From Chitinophagales bacterium (GTDB lineage Bacteria > Bacteroidota > Bacteroidia > Chitinophagales > UBA10324), in NCBI GenBank assembly GCA_038326325.1, contig JBBQJW010000013.1:15460-79459 (forward strand): a DNA stretch of 64,000 bases. The letters are read 5' to 3'. The notes beneath the pieces were generated by a model, which saw only the letters and a list, made by a program, of their open reading frames with translations, was not told where the DNA came from and made no database searches. Each line of letters begins with the position of its first letter. Position 1 is the stretch's first letter. Shown one piece after another: positions 745 through 57,968 of the stretch. The position numbers were made by a program, and so were the translations under genes.

Positions 745-3360
745 TTATTTAGTCAGAATCATTGATTTGGTGTCGATGAGTTTACCATCAATAAACAAAC
801 TATAGGTGTAAGTGCCTGCTGTCAGTTCGCCACTCTGAAGTGTAACAGTTCCGAAACCTGCCATGATATTTTCAAAGCGCTTCATCAGTTTGCCGTTTGT
901 ATCACTCACCTGAATGTATGCGGCTTTAGCAGTTGATGGAATGTAAAAACGGATGTAGCTCGATTGCATAAACGGGTTCGGCACATTCTGCTGTAACGAA
1001 GCAGTTTCCGGATTCAGATTTCCAGATGTAGTTGACCCCTGATAAGCCGAGCAGCATTGCGATAAAGCAGATTGAAAATCCTGTAACGACTTTTTTATGT
1101 CGGCCACTTCATTTTTCAACTGTGTGTTTTCATTTTGTAAATCAGTAATCTGTGCCTGTGCATCTGTGGAAATTCCGGTTTCAATTTCTTTTTGCTGATC
1201 CTGAACCGCTGAAATCAAAACAGGAATCAACTCCTGATAATTTACAGCAAGGTAGTTGAACGAAGATTTATCGTCGTTATAAAATTTATTATCAGAAACC
1301 AATTCAGGAAAAACTTTCTGCAGGTCCTGTGCAATCAATCCGTAATGATTTCCTGATGGTAAAAACATATCGCCGAATTCACCCACTTTAAACTCATATG
1401 AAGAAGGCTTCAACTCCATAATTTTATCAAGCGAATTTGAAATAGGAGTAACATTTTTTTTCAACTTCGCATCGGAAGAGTAAGAGTTGGTTCCGGTTCC
1501 GGTGAAGTTTCCGCTGCAGAAAATTGCATAAGTAGCACCATTGGAATTAGCTAACAAAGCTGCGTTACCATTGGTAGCACCTTTTGCATAAATTCCAAGA
1601 TAATTTCCTTCAAAGTAACCACCAAGTCCAAAGTTGGCATTTGTACCTAATGCTGTTCCTATTACCCCAACACCATCGTTATTTCCAGTACCGTCATAAT
1701 TTCCTTGCAGTGAAAAGGCAGAGCCAGCACCATTGGATCCGCCGGCATAAATTGTGGTAAATAAATTACCATATTGGGCACTTGATTGACCCCTCATTCC
1801 CATACCGCTATTAGAATATCCATAAGATCCAATACCTGTATTTGAAATTCCATAAACACCCATACTTGAATTTGAATTTCCATAAACCCCTGCATTGTTG
1901 CCTGAATTTCCATAAGTTCCAAAACCGGAATTTGAAGTTCCATAAACCCCAGCGCCTGTGAATGAACTTCCGTAAGTACCATTACCGGAATTTGAATATC
2001 CGTAAACCCCTGTGCTTGTGACTGAACTTCCATATGCTCCGTATCCGGAATTTGAATTGCCGACAACTCCATTACCTGTGGTTGCTGTTCCTACTACGCC
2101 ATTGAATCCTCCTAAAGAACCAAAACCGCCATTAGTTGAATATCCCTCAATAGCATAGTTATTACTATTTACATGCGCTTCAATAGCTGCAATTGATGTT
2201 TGGTCAGGGCCAGTGTAGTTTTTATTAATGTAAACACCTCCGCCATTTCCTGTTTTTGTGCAATTGAGTATATAACCTTCCCCCGGATCAGTTACTAAAA
2301 TCCCAGAGTATCCATTTGTAACTACATTGAGTTTATAACTCACATCTGTGGGTGCTCCACCAATACCAACTACCGAGGCGTTATTATTATAAATATCATT
2401 TCCTGTAGCAGTCCATTTGCTGTTAATGGTGTTTCCTGAAAAAGAAATCCCCGTTCCGGCGGTATAGGTTGTTCCTGTTGGAAGTATTACATTATTACCT
2501 CCGCTAATTGATAATGTGCTTCCTACAAGACTGAGTGTTTGAGCATCTGTATTCAATGATGTATTTGAGATTACAGTGCCAACAATTCCAATTCCTGTTC
2601 CGGCAGTATAAGTTGTTCCTGTTGGAAGTGTAACATTATTACCACCACTGATTGATAAGGTGCTTCCGGCAAGACTGAGTGTTTGTGCATCCGTATTCAA
2701 TGAAGTATTTGATATTACAGTGCCAACAATTCCAATTCCTGTTCCAGCGGTATAAGCTGAACCATTATCCGCACTCCATGCAAGCACACCTGCACCGTTG
2801 GTTTTTAATACCTGATTAACTGTTCCGTCAGTAGCAGGTAAAGTATATGCACCGACTTTTAAGTTGCCTTTAAAAATCCCATTCCCGGAGTTCGCGCCAA
2901 TTGAAAATACTGAGAGAGCAGAACTTGTTCTGAATTCATAAAGCAAACCGGAGGAATTAAAAAACAAACCATAGTTCGGGTTTCCGGCATACTGAAATGC
3001 ATATTTATTTCCGGCTACTTTATAAGCAGCTGTTCCGGCAAAAGATAAATTTCCTCCCGAATCAATTTTAGCCAGGTTAAATGAAGCACCAAACTGCCAC
3101 AGTCCGTTCGATTTTACACGACCTTTTTCGGTGTTGTTAGTTTTAAAAACAAAATCTTTATTGTCGGTAGTGCCTATAAAATTTGTTCCGGCGGTAGTTC
3201 CTGAGTTCCCAACTAGGTTCCACGATTGGGCAAAAGAATTGGTTGTGAAAGATGAAGTAATAGTTACAATACATACAACAATGAAGTGTAACAGTCTGAT
3301 ATTGATTTTACTCATTGAATTAATTTTTTTCAACAGGTATTCGTGAATCTTTGATTTCAT
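745..3360 (-). CDS. Secreted tail-fibre-like protein with a peptidase S74 intramolecular-chaperone domain and a T9SS C-terminal sorting domain
   Basis: 871-aa ORF with a signal peptide (alternative start ATG 3315, MSKINIRLLHF...SFAQ). It contains Gly/Ser/Tyr-rich decapeptide repeats. An S74-like block is present (SSDAKLKKNV...HYGLIAQDLQKVFPELV...AVNYQELIPVLISAVQDQQKEIE), followed by a coiled coil. The C-terminal CTD reads NPFMQSSYIRFYIP...GTYTYSLFIDGKLIDTKSMILTK. Confidence 0.75.
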   Translation of the reverse strand: MKSKIHEYLLKKINSMSKINIRLLHFIVVCIVTITSSFTTNSFAQSWNLVGNSGTTAGTNFIGTTDNKDFVFKTNNTEKGRVKSNGLWQFGASFNLAKIDSGGNLSFAGTAAYKVAGNKYAFQYAGNPNYGLFFNSSGLLYEFRTSSALSVFSIGANSGNGIFKGNLKVGAYTLPATDGTVNQVLKTNGAGVLAWSADNGSAYTAGTGIGIVGTVISNTSLNTDAQTLSLAGSTLSISGGNNVTLPTGTTYTAGTGIGIVGTVISNTSLNTDAQTLSLVGSTLSISGGNNVILPTGTTYTAGTGISFSGNTINSKWTATGNDIYNNNASVVGIGGAPTDVSYKLNVVTNGYSGILVTDPGEGYILNCTKTGNGGGVYINKNYTGPDQTSIAAIEAHVNSNNYAIEGYSTNGGFGSLGGFNGVVGTATTGNGVVGNSNSGYGAYGSSVTSTGVYGYSNSGNGTYGSSFTGAGVYGTSNSGFGTYGNSGNNAGVYGNSNSSMGVYGISNTGIGSYGYSNSGMGMRGQSSAQYGNLFTTIYAGGSNGAGSAFSLQGNYDGTGNNDGVGVIGTALGTNANFGLGGYFEGNYLGIYAKGATNGNAALLANSNGATYAIFCSGNFTGTGTNSYSSDAKLKKNVTPISNSLDKIMELKPSSYEFKVGEFGDMFLPSGNHYGLIAQDLQKVFPELVSDNKFYNDDKSSFNYLAVNYQELIPVLISAVQDQQKEIETGISTDAQAQITDLQNENTQLKNEVADIKKSLQDFQSALSQCCSAYQGSTTSGNLNPETASLQQNVPNPFMQSSYIRFYIPSTAKAAYIQVSDTNGKLMKRFENIMAGFGTVTLQSGELTAGTYTYSLFIDGKLIDTKSMILTK
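2462..2760 (-). repeat. 144-bp (48-codon) near-identical tandem duplication inside the CDS
   Basis: Unit starts (GTATAAG/GTATAGG) lie at 2462, 2606 and 2750, exactly 144 bp apart. The encoded peptide YTAGTGIGIVGTVISNTSLNTDAQTLSL(A/V)GSTLSISGGNNV(T/I)LPTGTT occurs twice, plus a partial third copy. Confidence 0.9.
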
Positions 3361-3538
3361 GGTTTAGGGTTGGTTTGTTGAATGTGAATCTATAAATAAT
3401 TTTCATAATTTGCTCCGGTGCAGTTAACCCCACTCACCCCTTATCCCGTCTCCAATGTTTATTCAGTATTTATTCATCGGAACCGATAAGCAATAACCGA
3501 TAACAGATGATTCATGTTTTGACCGGCGTTAAAAATTT

Positions 3539-3895
3539 CTATTCCCTTTGCTGCTTATTATCTCTATTACCCGCTTCAAACAACGAGTTAACTATCGACA
3601 GCACAATACTGAAAAGCAAAGCATACCAGAAACCATCCACCACAAAACCCGGAACAATTTTTCCGGCGAGCATAATCATAAATGCATTGAGCACTAACAG
3701 GAAAAAACCAAGTGTGAAAATGGTAATGGGTATGGTTAGAATAATTAAAACAGGTTTTACAAATGCATTGAGCACTGCAAGCACTGCCGCAACATAAATA
3801 GCGGTGAGCATGTTAGGCACTGTAACACCCGGAAGTAGGTAGGCAGAAACCAACACTGCTAAACCTGTAATTAAAATTTTAATAAGAAAGCGCAT
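3539..3895 (-). CDS. Phage-holin-family-IV / DUF360-like small membrane protein
   Basis: 118 aa with 3-4 TM helices. The pattern LITGLAVLVSAYLLPGV...AVLNAFVKPVL..LT.P is typical of the YvlD/DUF360 family. Confidence 0.6.
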   Translation of the reverse strand: MRFLIKILITGLAVLVSAYLLPGVTVPNMLTAIYVAAVLAVLNAFVKPVLIILTIPITIFTLGFFLLVLNAFMIMLAGKIVPGFVVDGFWYALLFSIVLSIVNSLFEAGNRDNKQQRE

Positions 3896-8934: not shown

Positions 8935-9912
8935 ATGCCTGTATTAGTTTTTGCAGAAAGTGCGAACGGAACATTTAAGAAATCGAATTTTGAAGCGGTG
9001 AGTTATGGAGCAAAGGTAGCTGCACAATTGGGCACCGAAGCTTTTGTAGTTTCATTTGAAAACCTGAGTGATGATGTTTTAAAATCATTGGGCGATTATG
9101 GCGCAACAAAAATTTATCGCATTGCGAATGATGCATTGAAAAATTTTGAAGCAGGGTTGTATGCGAAAGTGTTACACGATGCCGCAAAAAAACTCAATGC
9201 CAATGTTGTGATATTTTCTTTCAATTATGAGGGCAAAGCGATTGCACCTGTTTTAGCTGCAAAGATGAATGCGGGATATGTTGCAGGAGCATTTGCACTT
9301 CCTGAATTGGAAGGTAGTACAATGAAGATTCGCAAAAATGTTTTCAGCGGAAAGGCAATTGCATTGTATGCGATTCATTCTGAAAATAAAATTATTGCAC
9401 TTACTCCGAATACTGTTGCTCCTGAGAAAACGGAGAACAAATGTTCGGTTGAAAACCTTGATATAACAGTTTCATCAACCGAAAGCAAAGTGAAAGTAAA
9501 GGAAGTGGTGAAAGCATCCGGAAAAATTTCGTTAAGTGATGCAGATATTGTTGTGTCGGCAGGTCGCGGATTAAAAGGTCCTGAGAACTGGGGAATGGTG
9601 GAAGAGATGGCAACAATCCTCGGAGCAGCAACTGCATGTTCTCGTCCCGTTGCAGATATTCACTGGCGCCCGCACGAAGAGCATGTTGGGCAAACCGGTT
9701 TAACGGTTCGCCCCAATTTGTACATTGCTTTAGGAATCAGCGGAGCCATTCAGCATCTCGCGGGTGTGAATGGAAGTAAGGTGATTGTTGTGATTAATAA
9801 AGATCCCGAAGCACCTTTCTTCAAGGCAGCTGACTACGGAATCGTAGGTGATGTGTTTGAGGTTGTGCCGAAGTTGAACGAAGCATTTAAAAAGTTTAAA
9901 TCAGGAGCTTAA
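8935..9912 (+). CDS. etfA: Electron transfer flavoprotein, alpha subunit
   Basis: 325 aa with the C-terminal FAD-binding block VVSAGRGLKG...CSRPVAD..W.P...HVGQTG..V.P.LYIALGISGAIQHLAG. Confidence 0.9.
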   Translation: MPVLVFAESANGTFKKSNFEAVSYGAKVAAQLGTEAFVVSFENLSDDVLKSLGDYGATKIYRIANDALKNFEAGLYAKVLHDAAKKLNANVVIFSFNYEGKAIAPVLAAKMNAGYVAGAFALPELEGSTMKIRKNVFSGKAIALYAIHSENKIIALTPNTVAPEKTENKCSVENLDITVSSTESKVKVKEVVKASGKISLSDADIVVSAGRGLKGPENWGMVEEMATILGAATACSRPVADIHWRPHEEHVGQTGLTVRPNLYIALGISGAIQHLAGVNGSKVIVVINKDPEAPFFKAADYGIVGDVFEVVPKLNEAFKKFKSGA

Positions 9913-9926
9913 TATATTTACATCGG

Positions 9927-10547
9927 ATGAAAAAAATCGAACTTGAAATAGTCGCACTCTCTCATAGTATTACACAATCGCATTCGTATGCGGTGGTGTT
10001 GGGTGAAACAGGTGGCATACGCAGATTACCGATTGTGATTGGTGGTTTCGAAGCCCAGGCAATTGCTGTTGCGTTGGAAAAAATGAATCCAAGCCGACCA
10101 CTCACTCACGATTTAATGAAGAGTTTGTGTTCATCATTCGCCATTGATTTGAAAGAGATTGTGATTAATAATCTGGTGGATGGAATATTTTTTTCGCAGT
10201 TGGTTTGTCAGCGCGATAACGAAATAATTGAAATTGATTCACGCACTTCAGATGCAATTGCATTGGCAATCCGTTTTGACTGTCCGATTTACACTTACGA
10301 TTTTATTCTTGACTCTGCAGGTTTGATTATTGAAGAGCAGGAACAAGATGCACCTGAAGAAAAGGAAAAGAAAAAAAGTGTGAAGAAAACCGAACCGAAA
10401 ATTTCTTCGGGAGTTAGCACCGGAGATTTATCAAAAGTTTCTTTACCAGAACTGAATGAGATGCTTTCGAAATATATTGAGAAAGAAGATTATGAAAAAG
10501 CCATCGCCGTTCGCGACGAAATAGGAAGAAGGAAAAAGCAATCGTAA
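9927..10547 (+). CDS. Bifunctional nuclease family protein (DUF151) with C-terminal UVR motif
   Basis: SYAVVLGETGGIRRLPIVIGGFEAQAIAVALE...RPLTHDLM is the DUF151 core. The C-terminus LNEMLSKYIEKEDYEKAIAVRDEI resembles a UvrB/C motif. Confidence 0.75.
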   Translation: MKKIELEIVALSHSITQSHSYAVVLGETGGIRRLPIVIGGFEAQAIAVALEKMNPSRPLTHDLMKSLCSSFAIDLKEIVINNLVDGIFFSQLVCQRDNEIIEIDSRTSDAIALAIRFDCPIYTYDFILDSAGLIIEEQEQDAPEEKEKKKSVKKTEPKISSGVSTGDLSKVSLPELNEMLSKYIEKEDYEKAIAVRDEIGRRKKQS

Positions 10548-17568: not shown

Positions 17569-17721
17569 AGTATATTAGTTTTTCACTTTCGATACGGTGT
17601 TGCTTCCCGAATTCTTCGGGATAAATCGGGTGAAGGATGGCAGCGGAAATCATTTTATTGTAATCAATAAAATATTGCAGTGAACAGCCTGACAGCATTT
17701 TTGATTTGAAAGGTGTAACGG

Positions 17722-51423: not shown

Positions 51424-51999
51424 TCACTCGTGTTCTTTGTTTCTTTTATTAATTCTTGCCTTAAACATTCTTTCGCGTAATCCTCCTTCATTGATAAAAG
51501 CAATTTCAAGTGCTTTTATTTGTTGAGCGAGTAAATAACTGACAACCTTTATTAAGCCAATCATTGTGTTGGCGCATATTTCGGGGCTGTCGTTTTCAAT
51601 GGCCTTGCGAAATATTTCATAGTTAGCATTCGGAATTTTATTTAACTCACGAAGCCGCGCAACCAATTTATGTTCCTTAGCCCAAAGGGGTAATTTATTT
51701 GTTCTTAAAAAATCTTCGTAATCTATTTTCAGTTCTTCGAGACTGGCGCGTGCGACATTGGTGAGTTTTATTTCTGTTTCTTTTGAAGTGCCCGATGCCA
51801 TGCTTGCTTCAACAATATTTTGTTTTCCGCTGCGCGCCGCTTGTACCATCTGGTCTATGGTGCGGTCGTATTTCTGAAAAAACCGTTTCGTGAAATACAT
51901 TGTGCCATCATAAACTATTTCCGACTTCTGATAACTGATTAAATTTTGGTAACCACCGTGCACCGGAATAAAACCATCGGGGTTGGTTGGGTGTTGCAT
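51424..51999 (-). CDS. Four-helix-bundle protein (23S rRNA IVS-protein family) with C-terminal suffix domain
   Basis: DQMVQAARSGKQNIVEAS...ARASLEELKIDYEDFL is the TIGR02436-type core. The C-terminal GGLRERMFKAR resembles the associated suffix domain. This family is frequently embedded in R-M loci. Confidence 0.7.
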   Translation of the reverse strand: MQHPTNPDGFIPVHGGYQNLISYQKSEIVYDGTMYFTKRFFQKYDRTIDQMVQAARSGKQNIVEASMASGTSKETEIKLTNVARASLEELKIDYEDFLRTNKLPLWAKEHKLVARLRELNKIPNANYEIFRKAIENDSPEICANTMIGLIKVVSYLLAQQIKALEIAFINEGGLRERMFKARINKRNKEHE

Positions 52000-52017: not shown

Positions 52018-52098
52018 TAGGTGGGACTTGTTGGACGGCTCGGACGACTTTACAGAGGATGAAGATATTATTATTGATTAATTTTTTAACTGTTACAC
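52018..52098 (+). repeat. Direct repeat R2, copy b
   Basis: See copy a. It spans the hsdR stop codon and the hsdR/four-helix-bundle spacer. Confidence 0.8.
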
Positions 52099-54417
52099 CG
52101 CAACTCTCTCATCATATAAATGTTTTTGAAACCCGATAAACAGTTCGCGGATTTTTGGAATGCCGCCCAACTTTTCAGCGGCATCACTTACCGCATGATA
52201 TTTTAATTCAAGTAAACTTGGTAATTTTTCCTGGTCGAGTTCTTCCACTCCTGATTCAATGTATTTCGATAAAACAAATTCCAGAAACTCTTTCTGATTA
52301 TTATCGAGCATCGTGAAAATATTTTTCTGCGCGTTGGCAACACGCTTCTCGCGGGTGATTGGATTTTTAGAGTAGGAAATAAATTCCAGCACATCAAACA
52401 AATCGCTCTGCTCCGCGTCAATAATTTTTTGTAGTGTAGCCAATTCATCTTTTCCAAAACCCGCTTCATCCAATTGCTCCAATAAAGTTTTTCGTGTTAA
52501 AGGGTTTGACCATATTCTGCGCAACTCCTCTTCGTTTTTAAAAAGGTCGGGAAGTTTACCGAACAGACTATCTAAAAACTCCTCCAATGTCATTGGGTTG
52601 CCATCGGCTCCCATAAACAAAGAAGAAACCGTGTGTTGAATATCGAACTCCCTACCATTGCGCAACTTCACTCTTATTTTTATACGAGGTTCCGGTGGTT
52701 CCAGAATTCCGCCACCTTCATCAGTATTGCTATCATCTGGCTTTTCACTTGGTGGCTGAGGGTTTGTTTCAATTGTGTCTTCAGGTTCGCCATCCCATTG
52801 CGGGTCTTTGAATTTTTCACTTGCGTTTACAAAATCATAAATGGTGAAAAAGTTTTTATCGTCGAACAACCTCGTGCCTCTCCCTATAATTTGCTTGAAC
52901 TCTATAATATCGTTTATCGGTCGCATGAGCACGATGTTTCGGATGTTGCGAGCATCTACTCCCGTACTTAATTTTCTTGAAGTGGTGAGTATGGTCGGCG
53001 TGCTTCTTTCATTATCCTGAAACTGACGCAAATACTCTTCGCCCATTTCGCCGTCGTTGGCTGTTACACGCACGCAATAATTCGGCTCCTTGCTTTTTTT
53101 GTACTGGTTAATTAAATCACGCACCGCCGCCGCGTGTTCCTGCGTGGCGCAAAACACCAATGTTTTTTCTTTCTGATTAATTAAATCCATAAAGATTTTT
53201 ACGCGCTTTGCCTCGCGTGCTTTTATCTCTATGATTTTATTAAAATCACTTTCAGTGTATGTTTTGGTTTCATCTATTTCTCCTTCAATCACATTGTCGT
53301 CCGGCTGATAAGTGTAGGTATCAAGCGTGGTGGTAAATTTTTTAACTTTAAACGGCGTGAGAAATCCATCGTTGATTCCTTCCTTGAGCGAGTAAATAAA
53401 AACGGGCTCGCCGAAATATTTATAGGTGTTAACATTCACCTTTTTTTTAGGAGTGGCGGTTAATCCGATTTGCACCGCCGGAGAAAAATATTTTAATATC
53501 TCGCGCCAGGTGCTTTCATCATTTGCGCCGCCGCGATGACATTCGTCAATGATGATGAAATCAAAATAGTCTTTCGGATACTCACCGAAGTAGGGTGTAT
53601 CATTCGGACCGTTCATGAATGTTTGAAAGATGGTGAAGAAGATACTGCCGTTTGTCGGCACACTTCCTTTCTTTTTTATTTCTTTCGGACTGATGCGCAC
53701 GAGTGCATCTTCAGGAAAAGCATTGAAGGCGTTGTATGCCTGATCGGCTAAAATATTACGGTCTGCTAAAAATAAAATGCGCGGACGGCGGCCACCGTCG
53801 TATTTCAGATTCCAGCGCGTGTGAAATAATTTCCACGCAATCTGAAAAGCAATAAAAGTTTTTCCGGTGCCTGTTGCGAGTGTGAGTAGCACCCGATTTT
53901 TTTTTGCTGCAATGGCATCCAATGTTTTTTCTACGGCAATATCCTGATAAAATCTACCGCCCATGCTGCCGCCTTTTGTTTCGTAAGGCACTGCATCAAA
54001 CTTATCCTGCCATTGATTGGTGACAGGAAAAACTTTGTGCCACAACTCTTCAGGCGAATGAAAATTTTCTATCAATTCTTCTTTGGCTGAATCCATATCA
54101 ATATGATATATCTCTCTGCCGTTTGCGGAGTAGGTATCGTCAATTTTTAATTTCTCTGCATAGTCTTTTGCCTGCGCCACTCCTTCACCTACTTGCTGCT
54201 CATCACTCTTTGCTTCCACCACGGCGAGTTTGCGACCTTTGTAAGCAAGCACATAATCGGCAATGGTTGCTTTGCCTCTTCCTCCGGTAGCTTTTATTTT
54301 TCCGTCAGTAATCTGAAACTCACGATGCACTTTCACTTCGGGGTTGGCTTTGCCATCCCATCCGTTTTCTTTCAGCTTCGGGTCTATCAGTTCCGCTCGT
54401 GTTTCTGCTTCGTTCAT
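52093..54417 (-). CDS. hsdR: Type I restriction endonuclease, R subunit
   Basis: MNEAETRAELIDPKL N-terminus, helicase motifs LATGTGKTF, IIDECHRGG and QIIGRGTRL, and an EcoEI-R-like C-terminal domain. Confidence 0.9.
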   Translation of the reverse strand: MNEAETRAELIDPKLKENGWDGKANPEVKVHREFQITDGKIKATGGRGKATIADYVLAYKGRKLAVVEAKSDEQQVGEGVAQAKDYAEKLKIDDTYSANGREIYHIDMDSAKEELIENFHSPEELWHKVFPVTNQWQDKFDAVPYETKGGSMGGRFYQDIAVEKTLDAIAAKKNRVLLTLATGTGKTFIAFQIAWKLFHTRWNLKYDGGRRPRILFLADRNILADQAYNAFNAFPEDALVRISPKEIKKKGSVPTNGSIFFTIFQTFMNGPNDTPYFGEYPKDYFDFIIIDECHRGGANDESTWREILKYFSPAVQIGLTATPKKKVNVNTYKYFGEPVFIYSLKEGINDGFLTPFKVKKFTTTLDTYTYQPDDNVIEGEIDETKTYTESDFNKIIEIKAREAKRVKIFMDLINQKEKTLVFCATQEHAAAVRDLINQYKKSKEPNYCVRVTANDGEMGEEYLRQFQDNERSTPTILTTSRKLSTGVDARNIRNIVLMRPINDIIEFKQIIGRGTRLFDDKNFFTIYDFVNASEKFKDPQWDGEPEDTIETNPQPPSEKPDDSNTDEGGGILEPPEPRIKIRVKLRNGREFDIQHTVSSLFMGADGNPMTLEEFLDSLFGKLPDLFKNEEELRRIWSNPLTRKTLLEQLDEAGFGKDELATLQKIIDAEQSDLFDVLEFISYSKNPITREKRVANAQKNIFTMLDNNQKEFLEFVLSKYIESGVEELDQEKLPSLLELKYHAVSDAAEKLGGIPKIRELFIGFQKHLYDERVAV

Positions 54418-54428
54418 GTTTTTCTTTT

Positions 54429-54616
54429 ATGCGATGGACGATACCCATCGTTAGCGTATATCGCCTCTTCGTGGCTGATAGTATTATCCATCCTTAGATG
54501 CGATGGGCTACACCCATCATTAGCATATGTCGCCACTTCGTGGCTGAGAGTGTTATCTGTCATTAGATGCGATGGGCTACACCCATCGTTAGCATATGTC
54601 GCCACTTCGTGGCTTG
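54429..54616. repeat. 69-bp tandem repeat (about 2.7 units) of composite REP hairpins
   Basis: Unit starts ATGCGATGG lie at 54429, 54498 and 54567. Each unit carries hairpins GATGGGCTACACCCATC and GCCACTTCGTGGC. The array begins 12 nt upstream of the hsdR ATG. Confidence 0.9.
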
Positions 54617-54753
54617 CCCTGAAAGGGCATAATATTCCAACACAGGGTGCAGCCCTGTGGTAACAGGGTGCAGCCCTGTGGTAAGCACTAACATAGGGTG
54701 TAGCCCTATGAAGTGGCATCGCCACGAAACCCAAGCCCTGCAAGGGCGGCATA

Positions 54754-55206
54754 TTAATCCCACACATACTTCTCATCATATTCCACTTCGTATTTTTTTA
54801 AGAAGGCGCGGTACTCGTCCTGAAATGTTTTTTTGCTGTGATGTTCTTTCTGATTGGCGATGTAGTTTATTACCGTGTCAATCTCACTTGGGTTTACTGA
54901 GAATGCGCCATATCCATCCTGCCAGTAAAAGTTTTTATAATCATCACCTTTTGTCTTTATCCATTTTGATGAATGCGATTTTACTTCTTCTAATAATTTC
55001 ATCAATGCAATTTTTTTCGAGAGCATGCACAGGATGTGAATGTGGTCGGTGTATCCTCCCACTTTTATTGGCGGACACTCTAAGTTTTTACAGATGCCTC
55101 CTAAATAACTATGCAACTCGGCTTCTACCGGCGGATGTATGAGCGGCTCGCGGTGCTTGGTGCTGAATACGATGTGCATGTAGTTTTTTACGAGTGACTG
55201 TCCCAT
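54754..55206 (-). CDS. IS200/IS605-like Y1 HUH transposase (RAYT type)
   Basis: 150 aa with NYMHIVFSTKHREPLI, the HUH motif GGYTDHIHILC and the catalytic Tyr region FYWQDGYGAFSV. Confidence 0.8.
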   Translation of the reverse strand: MGQSLVKNYMHIVFSTKHREPLIHPPVEAELHSYLGGICKNLECPPIKVGGYTDHIHILCMLSKKIALMKLLEEVKSHSSKWIKTKGDDYKNFYWQDGYGAFSVNPSEIDTVINYIANQKEHHSKKTFQDEYRAFLKKYEVEYDEKYVWD

Positions 55207-55239
55207 GTTTTTCGATGGGCTGCACCCATCTTTATTAGA

Positions 55240-56499
55240 TTACGCCCCTTCAGGGCTTGGTTGTTTGTTTTTTTTATCTCGAATGGCGTTGCCATTCGCT
55301 AATGATTTTGCCCCTTCGGGGTTGCGCAACTCTCCGCTAAACGCCTTCTGTAACACACTCTTCTTCAACTCTTCCAAATCGGCTATCTTCTTTTCGTAGA
55401 TGCTTTCTAATTTTTTTGTTTCGGTTGAGAGGGCATCAAGTTTTTTAACGATGGCTTGTTGCTCTTTTAAGGATTTTGGAAAAGGAATGATTATATTCTT
55501 CACTTCACTATCTGTTACAGCAGGATAGCTTGCTCCTTTTTGAAGTTTTTCCATTTGCTTGTTAAATCCATAAGTTAAGAGAAAATAAAAAATAAAATTA
55601 CTATTAAGAAAGTCCTTTGCTCTTAAAACAAAGTAACCGGTACTACAAATTTGCTCGTTATATTCTTTTGTTATTAAAGCAACCCGGCTGTGCGTTGGTC
55701 TAACAGTTGCAAAAATTACATCGTTTGTTCTTATAAGTTTTCTTGCTCGGCTTGGTGCATCTTTACCTTTTAGTACAGTTGCATTTTCAATTTCTTTTGT
55801 TTCTTTATTAACGCTCGATACATCAAGATAAATAAATTCTTTATTTGGTTTTTTGGTTGGGTCAGCCGTTTCTGTTTTTTGAAGAACCTCTCCCAATTTT
55901 TTCTCCTCCCAACCCTCACCTTTATTTTCAAACACACTTTGCAAGTAACTCTCAAAAAGTTCTTTAGCGTTTTTAAGATTTTGTTCGGCATTGGCTTTTG
56001 CCTTGGCTATGGCGGCAAATGCTTCATCTAATATTGATACTATCCGTTGTTGTTCGAGGAGAGGGGGAAGTGGTACAGGATATTTATCTAATAATTCCTT
56101 TCTTACCCCATCCTGACCAGCAGCTCGTTTTGAAGAATGTTCTACAAACTCTCTTAGTTTGTCCGTTTTAAGAAATAAGAAGAAATAATCTCTGTTACAA
56201 ATTTTCTCATTAATAACAGCTTTCATTAAAGCCACATTATACGCACCTTCAATTCCTTTAAATATTCCAAAAATTGGTGGCCCATAACGACCTATCATTA
56301 TGTCTTCTTTATTACAAAATCTTTTTGCTTTTGCTTTTGGAATGTATGTAACAAACTTATCTGTTCGATAATCTCTGACTTGAACTAGTCTTATGTATCC
56401 ACTTTTTGGTTCATAGATAAATTCATCTTTTGATGGTTGACTTCCACCAACCAATTCACATACATCAATAAAATTCTTTATTTCCCACCCTTGTTTCAT
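55240..56499 (-). CDS. hsdS: Type I R-M specificity subunit
   Basis: Two TRDs are separated by conserved spacers (PLPPLLEQQRIVSILDEAF; FPKSLKEQQAIVKKLDALS). It overlaps hsdM by 4 nt. The last 28 codons are encoded by REP-like hairpin DNA. Confidence 0.85.
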   Translation of the reverse strand: MKQGWEIKNFIDVCELVGGSQPSKDEFIYEPKSGYIRLVQVRDYRTDKFVTYIPKAKAKRFCNKEDIMIGRYGPPIFGIFKGIEGAYNVALMKAVINEKICNRDYFFLFLKTDKLREFVEHSSKRAAGQDGVRKELLDKYPVPLPPLLEQQRIVSILDEAFAAIAKAKANAEQNLKNAKELFESYLQSVFENKGEGWEEKKLGEVLQKTETADPTKKPNKEFIYLDVSSVNKETKEIENATVLKGKDAPSRARKLIRTNDVIFATVRPTHSRVALITKEYNEQICSTGYFVLRAKDFLNSNFIFYFLLTYGFNKQMEKLQKGASYPAVTDSEVKNIIIPFPKSLKEQQAIVKKLDALSTETKKLESIYEKKIADLEELKKSVLQKAFSGELRNPEGAKSLANGNAIRDKKNKQPSPEGA

Positions 56500-57968
56500 A
56501 TCAATTCTAAAATAGAATTTAAAATATCTGTGCTCTCTTCATCTAATATTTTCATTTCTTCTAAAATTTCTTCGGGTTGGCGCAGTGCGGCTTCTGCTTT
56601 TTTGTTTGGGTTTTTGGCGCCCAAGTCAAAAGTGGTTTGGTCAATGTCTTTAATATTTATTGTCCATGAGTTTTCGCTTTCTCCCTTCGACTGGCTCAGG
56701 GTGACAGCTTTTTGTAGTGTTACAAAGTCAGCCAAATCATTTTCATTCAGCGCATTGGTTTTGCCGAGGTTGCGGTCTAAGTTCAGTTGGTAGTACCACA
56801 CTTTTTTTGTGGCAGTACCTTTTTCAAAAAACAACACCACCGTTTTTACTCCCGCGCCGGTAAAGGTTCCCCCCGGCAAATCAAGCACGGTGTGCAGGTT
56901 GCAGGTTTCTAATAACAGTTTGCGCAAACTCACAGAGGCATTATCGGTGTTACTCAAAAAAGTATTTTTAATCACCACGCCTGCCTTGCCTCCTGCTTTC
57001 AATATTTTTATAAAGTGCTGCAAAAACAGCGAAGCGGTTTCACCTGTTTTTATCGTAAAGTTCTGCTGTACTTCTGCTCTTTCCTTTCCGCCAAACGGTG
57101 GGTTGGCGAGTACCACATCGTAGCGGTCTTTGTCCTGTATGTCGGCGAGGTTTTCACTCAGCGTATTCGTATGAATAATATTGGGCGCTTCCACGCCATG
57201 CAATATCATGTTCATGATACCTATAATGTAGGCGAGTGATTTTTTCTCTTTGCCGTAAAAAGTTTTGGTCTGAAGTGTTACAGCATCTTTAGTCGAGAGA
57301 TTTTTGTTCTGCTTCAGGTATTCAAACGATTCGGTTAAGAAACCGCCGGAGCCGCACGCGCCATCATAAATTTTATTTCCGATTTCAGGTGCCACTACTT
57401 TCACAATTGTTTTTATCAGCGGGCGCGGCCTGTAATACTCGCCGCCGTTGCGCCCTGCATTGCCCATGTTCTTTATCTTGTCTTCATACAGATGGCTCAT
57501 CTCGTGCTTCTCTGCACTCGAATTAAATCGAAGTTCATCCACTAAGTTTATTATCTCGCGCAAATTGTACCCGCTCTGAATTTTATTTTTCAGCTCGCTA
57601 AAAATTTCTCCAATCTTATATTCAATCGTGTTAGCATGGTCGGCATCAACTTTAAATTTTTTTAGGTAAGGAAACAGTTTGCCATCTACAAAATCTTTCA
57701 GGTCATCACCCGTCAACGCTTTGTGATGGTCGAGCTTGCCTTCTTTTCCTTTCGGAGCTGCCCACACATTCCATTGAAATTCTTTTTTAATAAGCGGCTC
57801 ATAAGTTTTGCCGGTGAGTTCGGCTTTCGCTTCGCGTTCTTTTTCTAAGTCGGATAAATATTTCAGAAAGATTATCCAGGAGGTTTGCTCTACATAATCC
57901 AGTTCGTTGCTGCACCCCGCTTCCTTCCAAAGTATATCATCAATATTTTTAAAAGATTGTTCAAACAT
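56496..57968 (-). CDS. hsdM: Type I R-M N6-adenine DNA methyltransferase subunit
   Basis: AdoMet motif IYDGACGSGGFL, catalytic motif VLANPPFGGKE, and an HsdM N-terminal domain (ILWKEAGCSNELDYVEQTSWIIFLKYL). Confidence 0.9.
   Translation of the reverse strand: MFEQSFKNIDDILWKEAGCSNELDYVEQTSWIIFLKYLSDLEKEREAKAELTGKTYEPLIKKEFQWNVWAAPKGKEGKLDHHKALTGDDLKDFVDGKLFPYLKKFKVDADHANTIEYKIGEIFSELKNKIQSGYNLREIINLVDELRFNSSAEKHEMSHLYEDKIKNMGNAGRNGGEYYRPRPLIKTIVKVVAPEIGNKIYDGACGSGGFLTESFEYLKQNKNLSTKDAVTLQTKTFYGKEKKSLAYIIGIMNMILHGVEAPNIIHTNTLSENLADIQDKDRYDVVLANPPFGGKERAEVQQNFTIKTGETASLFLQHFIKILKAGGKAGVVIKNTFLSNTDNASVSLRKLLLETCNLHTVLDLPGGTFTGAGVKTVVLFFEKGTATKKVWYYQLNLDRNLGKTNALNENDLADFVTLQKAVTLSQSKGESENSWTINIKDIDQTTFDLGAKNPNKKAEAALRQPEEILEEMKILDEESTDILNSILELI

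Follow-up and report, generated by a model that had tools for sequence, protein, structure and literature searches.

A probable REPtron-like module of an IS200-like HUH enzyme gene and two-hairpin repeats between hsdS and hsdR of a Bacteroidota type I restriction-modification operon

Organization of the locus and its hairpin units

The window, the whole 64,000-nt stretch of contig JBBQJW010000013.1 from a Chitinophagales bacterium (assembly GCA_038326325.1, positions 15,460 to 79,459), contained a type I restriction-modification (R-M) operon in which hsdM, hsdS, and hsdR were all intact and encoded the characteristic Pfam domains. The HsdR protein was identical to the homolog P0121. The genes hsdS and hsdR were separated by a 0.9-kb block consisting of a gene for a Y1 HUH enzyme, tnpA, and a set of short hairpin units, much as the initial annotation had described it, with small corrections to the coordinates. 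The units were located with a covariance model, R1, which was built from 79 units of other, related loci only and was run without filters on the whole 64 kb. The operon and the block were composed of the following features.

56496-57968, minus strand: hsdM, type I methyltransferase subunit of 490 residues (Pfam N6_Mtase 204.6 bits and HsdM_N)
55240-56499, minus strand: hsdS, whole gene (Pfam Methylase_S, two matches)
55327-56499, minus strand: hsdS core, ending in ...LQKAFSGEL (Methylase_S 116.9 bits; the GEL end aligned with orthologs)
55240-55326, minus strand: HsdS tail of 28 codons (RNPEGAKSLANGNAIRDKKNKQPSPEGA) and stop codon, reverse complement of hairpin units
55280-55323, plus strand: unit in the hsdS tail, antisense to the genes (R1 37.5 bits, E 9e-7, full length)
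55213-55257, plus strand: unit 5' of tnpA, antisense, with its long hairpin ending 6 nt upstream of the tnpA ATG (R1 45.0 bits, E 2e-8; RF01687 15.3 bits)
54754-55206, minus strand: tnpA, intact, encoding a Y1 HUH enzyme of 150 residues (Pfam Y1_Tnp 88 bits)
54735-54754, minus strand: partial unit (linker and short hairpin, GCCCTTGCAGGGC), sense, starting at the tnpA stop codon (R1 model positions 25-44)
54663-54710, minus strand: long hairpin on its own, in two copies (CAGGGCTGCACCCTG, TAGGGCTACACCCTA), within a 21-bp tandem repeat (R1 54684-54710, 26.5 bits, and 54663-54679)
54615-54659, minus strand: full unit, sense (R1 55.7 bits, E 9e-11; RF01687 22.5 bits)
54432-54614, plus strand: three tandem antisense units (54432-54476, 54501-54545, 54570-54614) with 24-nt spacers (R1 44.7, 49.7, and 59.3 bits; RF01687 24.3 bits)
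54418-54431, minus strand: 14-nt A-rich leader (CATAAAAGAAAAAC) spanning the gap from the last unit to the hsdR ATG (taken from the sequence itself)
52093-54417, minus strand: hsdR, intact, 774 residues (Pfam ResIII, SWI2_SNF2, Helicase_C, EcoEI_R_C)

The full unit was a 45-nt element composed of a long hairpin, a linker, and a short hairpin, and the separate pieces of the block were unified into it by comparing related loci. The long hairpin had a 7-bp stem with an invariant inner GGG/CCC core, a free outer stem, and a 5-nt loop. The conserved 12-nt linker had a GCTAATATATTACG-like consensus, and the short hairpin was formed by a 5-bp GC stem with a TTC triloop (GAA on the opposite strand). 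Six full units were detected by R1, all of them in the block (E 1e-11 to 9e-7), besides three partial units (54663-54679, 54684-54710, and 54735-54754). No further unit was found by this search in the 64-kb window, where the next best match had an E value of 5.9. The units at 54570-54614 and 54615-54659 abutted tail to tail, forming an inverted dimer like the REPINs of repetitive extragenic palindromic (REP) sequences.

The repeats that had been listed in the initial annotation were recovered as parts of this unit. The 69-bp tandem repeat of 2.7 copies, found by Tandem Repeats Finder (TRF) at 54429-54614 with 88% matches and a score of 288, corresponded to one unit plus a 24-nt spacer. The 21-bp tandem repeat (2.0 copies at 54642-54684, 100% matches) corresponded to the long hairpin alone. 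The sequence GATGGGCTRCACCCATC, described as lying on both sides, was located at 54502, 54571, and 55214, and a copy with 3 mismatches lay at 54433. These 4 matches compared with 0.14 expected; 4 was reached in none of 100 shuffles, and there was no match elsewhere in the window. The array lay close to the hsdR ATG as described, although the distance given as 12 nt was 14 nt from the end of the nearest unit (54432) and 11 nt from the start of the TRF array.

An inverted repeat, I4, bracketed tnpA (55243-55260 and 54731-54748, 89% complementary), so that the partial unit at 54735-54754 was paired in inverted orientation with 55243-55260. When the 336-nt array between tnpA and hsdR was folded as single-stranded DNA, the energy was -75.6 kcal/mol, compared with -45.4 +/- 3.9 kcal/mol for shuffles (z=-7.8). 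The partial unit at the tnpA stop codon matched a terminator-like pattern. Scans for sigma-70 promoters and terminators gave counts no higher than those of shuffles, with a tool that holds no Bacteroidota promoters.

When the block was scanned permissively against Rfam, full-length sub-threshold matches were obtained to the 46-nt model RF01687, Acido-Lenti-1. The window copies scored 24.3, 22.5, 15.3, 15.0, and 13.5 bits, all below the gathering score of 37, and units of the same family in related loci reached that score 16 times (37.7-49.7 bits). In Acido-Lenti-1, a 12-nt linker (GCUAAUnUAUnnCG) joins an 8-bp hairpin to a 5-bp hairpin whose loop is UUC, and the window unit has the same architecture. 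By sequence comparison, the hairpin unit of the block is identified as Acido-Lenti-1, with the window copies as divergent members (13-24 bits against 37). In an alignment of 132 distinct metagenome units, which were collected with a short-hairpin pattern and fitted to the model, 96.8% of cells were paired and 11 of 12 pairs had changes on both sides. The covariation score of these units was 0.464, against 0.115 for shuffles and at most 0.09 for slid controls.

Acido-Lenti-1 was described by Weinberg et al. (2010, PMC2864571) from Acidobacteria and Lentisphaerae, with proximity to group II introns as the sole context noted. It is filed in Rfam as a small RNA (sRNA), classed as a likely RNA with covariation, and a 2026 preprint stated that little was known about its function. 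In the seed alignment (PMC2864571), copies from Lentisphaera araneosa and Koribacter versatilis numbered in the dozens and lay on both strands as well as in tandem, and in this multi-copy arrangement the motif already resembled the units of the block. The units differed from the filed sRNA, which has no transposase link, in occurring in Bacteroidota and in behaving as a DNA repeat. No paper tying Acido-Lenti-1 to a transposase was found in the literature search, and a full-text search with the hairpin sequences returned nothing relevant.

The TnpA enzyme and its association with the units

The TnpA protein contained the motifs DHIH, WQ (YWQDGY), and YIANQKEHH within its 150 residues. It had been annotated as a Y1-HUH transposase of the REP-associated tyrosine transposase (RAYT) type. 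The Y1-HUH part of this description held (PF01797, 88 bits), whereas the RAYT part did not, since the RAYT model NF047646 gave 20.7 bits (cut-off 80) and the catalytic motif was Y---Q--HH, not Y---NP. The NCBIfam IS200/IS605 model NF033573 was passed with 65.6 bits (cut-off 55). The closest solved structure was that of IS608 TnpA (PDB code 2A6M, E 1e-7), in which H64/H66 aligned with DHIH and Y127 with the tyrosine of YIANQ; the glutamine was also aligned. E. coli TnpA-REP (PDB code 4ER8) was not among the PDB matches at E<=1.

In the classification of Quentin et al. (2018, PMC6006769), TnpA_Y1 subclass 1.2 comprises IS200-related enzymes without the properties of an insertion sequence (IS) and with a mean copy number of 1.7. 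Its signatures are DH[IV]H, WQ, and YIxNQKEHH (Y---Q--HH), a length of ~148 residues, and a conserved C-terminal extension. The subclass is confined to Cyanobacteria and Bacteroidetes and has no IS200-type ends (PMC6006769). Because its motifs (DHIH, WQ, and YIANQKEHH), its length, and its taxon agree with this description, TnpA is assigned from its sequence to the IS200-like subclass 1.2 and not to the canonical RAYTs. All published signatures were shared, including the low copy number, and the relatives of TnpA were from Bacteroidota.

Among 7,998 homologous proteins scored, the best 120 were 81-91% identical to the window TnpA, for which an exact look-up returned no record. The gene was of low copy number, with the best 80 loci coming from ~79 genomes. 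The open reading frame (ORF) was intact in 83 of 84 homologs, and the nonsynonymous divergence (pN 0.117), set against a saturated synonymous divergence (pS 0.80), indicates strong purifying selection on tnpA. Tandem tnpA pairs ~1 kb apart were seen in L017 (3240-4694) and L041 (9102-10922), with a further fragment in L041; these were the only multi-copy cases among the best 80 loci.

The association of the gene with the unit was consistent. In one-genome-per-species contigs, 459 stretches encoded a TnpA relative, of which the best 80 loci were kept; with the Spirosoma locus L002 added, they made up a set of 81 tnpA loci. The unit profile detected 355 copies in this set, at least one in each of the 81 loci, and 342 of the 355 were within 600 bp of tnpA. 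Units within 100 nt upstream of tnpA were mostly antisense (63, against 17 sense), and those within 100 nt downstream were mostly sense (69, against 9 antisense). By this bias, tnpA was bracketed by inverted units in the manner of RAYT genes. The number and order of the units differed in every locus, and the units were recognisably conserved despite the saturated synonymous sites of tnpA. In metagenome contigs, TnpAs of 38-52% identity that adjoined units still had the motif Y---Q--HH.

Units were also found apart from the gene. A metagenome scan with AGCCCTGAAAGGGCGWWATA matched at least 120 contigs, and 38 of the matches listed had at least 1.5 kb on both sides; a TnpA was encoded within 1 kb in 6 of these 38 and was absent from that distance in 32. 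Tandem arrays (L143, 66-bp period), inverted pairs (L103 and L175), and separate unit clusters kilobases apart (L137, L143, and L188) were present in metagenome contigs among the matches listed. The view that the units are purely local and not a repeat family was rejected as a general statement on account of these solo copies and arrays without tnpA, although locality still holds for close relatives of the window locus. Carriage of the module by phages was rejected, as 2.9 million viral contigs gave one unit match and no TnpA. Carriage by plasmids was rejected as well, with only two distant homologs (40-55%) on megaplasmids, both without clear units.

The hsdS-hsdR junction and in-frame units

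When the window operon was compared with related operons, the closest was that of L083, with HsdM 89% and HsdR 82% identical. In L083 and L085, the hsdS stop codon overlapped the hsdR ATG by 4 nt (ATGA), and no units were present. The two operons are thus empty sites and provide the comparison with orthologs lacking the block that had been proposed in the initial annotation. Because the closest operons lack the block and have overlapping hsdS and hsdR genes, the block is an insertion. The earlier view that hsdR had lost its native upstream region was not sustained: hsdR had no upstream region of its own, and its overlap with hsdS was lost instead. In L083, a HEPN_AbiV gene was located between hsdM and hsdS (3209-3796).

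The gene tnpA occupied the same slot, in the same orientation, of an orthologous operon in 31 of the 80 loci (HsdM 72-84% and HsdR 55-79% identical). The remaining 49 loci had unrelated neighbours, in some cases with other R-M genes nearby. Other cargo was found in the slot of L087 (3389-5000; three small genes, including a helix-turn-helix protein gene) and in that of L089 (4032-5000; a PDDEXK_3 gene amid another short repeat, AATCCGTGCAATCTGCGTAATC). Accessory genes are known between hsdS and hsdR, and the EcoprrI locus with its prrC gene is an example. Cargo is lodged at the same junction here, as in L087 and L089, with the difference that the cargo of the window is a transposase-like gene with repeats and not a defence effector. 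As these comparisons show, insertions have landed repeatedly at the hsdS-hsdR junction in a widespread type I family of Bacteroidota. A literature search for IS200 together with hsd genes returned nothing relevant.

On the TnpA tree, the R-M-linked proteins clustered (15 Fitch changes, whereas the null had a mean of 26.4 and a minimum of 19), and the distances between TnpAs were correlated with those between HsdR proteins (rho 0.44, Mantel p 0.0045). A large part of the recurrence is hence put down to descent shared with a mobile cassette. A single ancestral capture by an R-M cassette was rejected because of the ~15 state changes and the incongruence of the window, in which TnpA was closest to TnpAs from another HsdR subclade (62-70% identity) and the operon was closest to the empty ones. 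Since these affinities disagree, the window block must have entered the slot independently or via recombination.

Recombination would have taken place through the conserved hsdS 3' and hsdR 5' ends. In L033, hsdR 5' fragments of 72 nt and ~30 nt were duplicated on both sides of the tnpA block (1915-2000 and ~3040-3090), and the full hsdR followed 1.7 kb further on, which hints at recombination at the conserved hsdR start. In the window, the last 150 nt of the hsdS core and the first 30 nt of hsdR were somewhat nearer to those of filled loci than to L083, in stretches too short to decide. The L033 and junction data are compatible with either route.

The last 28 codons of hsdS, after ...KAFSGEL, had been ascribed to hairpins. 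In agreement with this, the codons (55243-55326) overlapped the unit at 55280-55323 completely and also covered the short hairpin of the unit at 55213-55257. The tail was a reverse-complement reading that took in one full unit, a spacer rich in A, and a short hairpin; it began directly after GEL, and its stop codon was within the conserved linker (GCG TAA). In the hairpin-free orthologs L083 and L085, HsdS ended in short native tails, GELTEKAIVA or GELTFSIEKIIA. Of 23 filled loci in which the HsdS end could be recognised, 17 had a tail of the kind xSPEGA..NDGxSPS..K-rich..SPERA followed by the stop codon, 4 kept a short native tail (KTEKALTV-like) with the block after the stop codon, and in 1 the ORF ran into tnpA. 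Tails and hairpins co-occurred, and no ortholog sharing the tail without hairpins was found. In L075 (~9007-10450), no stop codon separated the hsdS frame from tnpA, and an HsdS-TnpA fusion ORF is predicted.

Units in frame were also located in hsdR, at one site after FTIFQTFMT, with 1 to 5 repeats overall (L027 3817-3862, one unit; L023 2519-2633; L009 11535-11790), and in hsdM (L032 8304-8348). The peptides added were of the type SPEGAKS..ATPLA. The 45-nt unit and the array periods of 51, 66, and 69 nt were all multiples of three. Rickettsia palindromic elements (RPEs) are said to have been found by Ogata et al. in 2000, inserted in frame into genes. The units resembled RPEs as short palindromic repeats that lie in coding sequence, keep the frame, and add a peptide (HsdS tail, HsdR loops, HsdM), and by this resemblance they are read as tolerated read-through rather than as demonstrated exaptation. 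The two differ in that the repeat families are unrelated and a candidate mobilising enzyme is encoded beside the repeats here. RPE families are mentioned in PMC3733652.

As a result of the insertion, a native HsdS tail of 7-10 residues was lost and 28 codons were read into the repeats. The hsdR gene was 0.9 kb of hairpin-rich DNA away from hsdS, without the ATGA overlap, and its start was preceded by a unit and the A-rich leader of 14 nt. Similar A-rich leaders preceded hsdR in other filled loci. The output of HsdR is probably lowered or decoupled relative to HsdM and HsdS, because the coupling of translation would be lost and many stable hairpins would have to be crossed by transcripts. Some close HsdR homologs (P0123, P0237, and P0240) were 898-918 residues long and had an extra GIY-YIG domain (PF01541), which suggests that a nuclease was inserted into, or fused to, the restriction subunit.

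Outside the block, a gene of the four-helix-bundle or 23S rRNA intervening-sequence-protein family was located directly downstream of hsdR (51424-51999, minus strand; TIGR04258 suffix domain, 67.5 bits). In metagenome contig L001, which is identical, hsdR was followed by this gene too. Its membership in the module was rejected, as no hairpin units surrounded it. A Flavo-1 RNA (RF01705) was found at 17620-17698 on the plus strand (43.8 bits, gathering score 42), in keeping with an origin from Bacteroidota. Tandem repeats of 30, 60, and 144 bp (144-bp x2.2, 89% matches) at 1798-2756 probably belong to a repetitive coding region.

Interpretation of the block

The block is probably a REPtron-like module, that is, a low-copy, conserved subclass 1.2 Y1 HUH gene with its cognate DNA repeats of the Acido-Lenti-1 type, placed at the hsdS-hsdR junction. 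In REPtrons, RAYT/TnpA-REP genes are flanked by REPs or bacterial interspersed mosaic elements (Nunvar 2010; Ton-Hoang 2012; Bertels 2017; classes reviewed in PMC6006769). The module shares with them a single-copy Y1 HUH gene, bracketed by inverted, short, GC-rich hairpin repeats that also occur solo, as inverted dimers, and in clusters, and the gene is under purifying selection without spread of identical copies. It differs in its enzyme, which is of class 1 (IS200-like, Y---Q--HH) where the REPtron enzyme is of class 2 (Y---NP) and which failed the NCBIfam RAYT model. Its repeat is a 45-nt two-hairpin unit without a GTAG tag, and the copies are concentrated within 600 bp of the gene, whereas REPs are scattered in hundreds over the chromosome. 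The module is accordingly regarded as a widespread variation on the REP/RAYT theme and not as a one-off event.

By analogy with IS608 TnpA and E. coli TnpA-REP, the enzyme would bind the unit hairpins on single-stranded DNA and would cut and rejoin the strand beside them. It may copy or move units, mostly over short distances. Such copying would account for the inverted bracket around tnpA, the tandem arrays with periods of multiples of three, the inverted dimers, and the in-frame intrusions. The module may have come to the junction by insertion or by recombination with another R-M cassette.

Several points weigh against this interpretation. Dispersal over the genome is the hallmark of REPs, but in this lineage no unit was found beyond 4 kb of tnpA in the 81 loci (~534 kb), and none elsewhere in the window. 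For subclass 1.2, PMC6006769 lists 'REP: no', whereas cognate two-hairpin units were present at all 81 loci here. The REP search of that survey demanded GTAG/GTGG tags and stems of at least 7 bp, so that a two-hairpin unit would escape it. Binding and cleavage of the units by a subclass 1.2 enzyme are argued from analogy. The covariation alignment was shaped by its model and by the hairpin pattern used to collect it. With regard to the effect on restriction, hsdR was intact in 14 of 21 assessable filled loci, a proportion with no baseline for comparison, and it was intact in the window too.

An ordinary autonomous IS200-family IS in the junction, with the hairpins as its left and right ends and debris, is an unlikely alternative. 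The IS200/IS605 model was passed, and IS608 TnpA was the closest relative in sequence and structure, with the HUH motif, tyrosine, and glutamine conserved, from a family of enzymes that recognises subterminal hairpins on single strands. The gene also stood in many unrelated contexts (49 of 80 loci), and the antisense units on both sides of tnpA in the window make direct ends conceivable. However, the units nearest to the gene were inverted, not direct, and no fixed ends were present, as the unit number and order differed in every locus. Units were found solo and in arrays as well, and the module lacked the multicopy identical elements and the tnpB of IS200/IS608. With about one copy per genome and saturated synonymous sites between copies, no recent bursts of identical copies were seen, in line with the description of subclass 1.2 as lacking IS properties (PMC6006769). 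It is rather improbable, for its part, that the units are a functional RNA, acting in cis as terminators or stabilisers that set the transcript levels of hsdS, tnpA, and hsdR, with a secondary link to the enzyme. Rfam and Weinberg et al. (PMC2864571) class the motif as a likely RNA with covariation, and compensatory changes in the units were strong; a covariation signal is, however, alike for DNA and RNA hairpins. A short hairpin followed by a T-rich stretch directly after the tnpA stop codon matched the terminator pattern in most loci, and E. coli REPs are known to stabilise upstream mRNA (PMC6006769), but terminator- and promoter-like matches did not exceed those of shuffles. The orientation and coding context of the units would speak against their acting as transcribed RNA, since they lay in both orientations to transcription within one operon and in frame within coding sequences. 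They also formed inverted dimers and tandem arrays and were tied to an enzyme family acting on single-stranded DNA hairpins.

The recurrence in one slot raises the question of whether the module is a functional partner of the R-M family, targeted to the junction or kept there since the array delays or limits HsdR in a new host. The 31 of the 80 closest homologs in the same slot and orientation, the clustering of R-M-linked TnpAs (15 Fitch changes against a null mean of 26.4), and the partial co-divergence with HsdR (rho 0.44, Mantel p 0.0045) are consistent with such a role. The mismatch of TnpA and operon in the window further suggests that the block reached the slot twice or moved between cassettes, and further tnpA copies adjoined other R-M genes. 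Hitch-hiking on a mobile cassette predicts the same clustering and co-divergence, however, and homologous recombination via the conserved hsdS 3' and hsdR 5' ends yields the same picture. In addition, 49 of the 80 loci were in unrelated contexts, empty and other-cargo operons exist, and hsdR was damaged in one third of the assessable filled loci. As an explanation of the block, this role is very unlikely. The related proposal, that module and R-M family are partners and that an array aimed at or retained in the junction breaks translational coupling and throttles HsdR, deserves slightly more credence and is still quite doubtful; if it were true, the mobile cassette would be helped to establish before restriction begins and would in return carry the module to new genomes.

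The REPtron-like reading would join two orphans, a Y1 subclass described in 2018 without REPs and an Rfam motif published in 2010 as a functionally unassigned sRNA. The tolerance of in-frame units in HsdS, HsdR, and HsdM bears on annotation and on the balance of restriction and modification. If the link between enzyme and repeat is true, Acido-Lenti-1 is to be re-filed as a REP-like DNA repeat, and its 45-nt unit would provide a compact, testable substrate for an uncharacterised HUH enzyme. REP/RAYT-type partnerships would then have arisen at least two times, once within the IS200 branch, and the module would represent an intermediate for studying transposase domestication.

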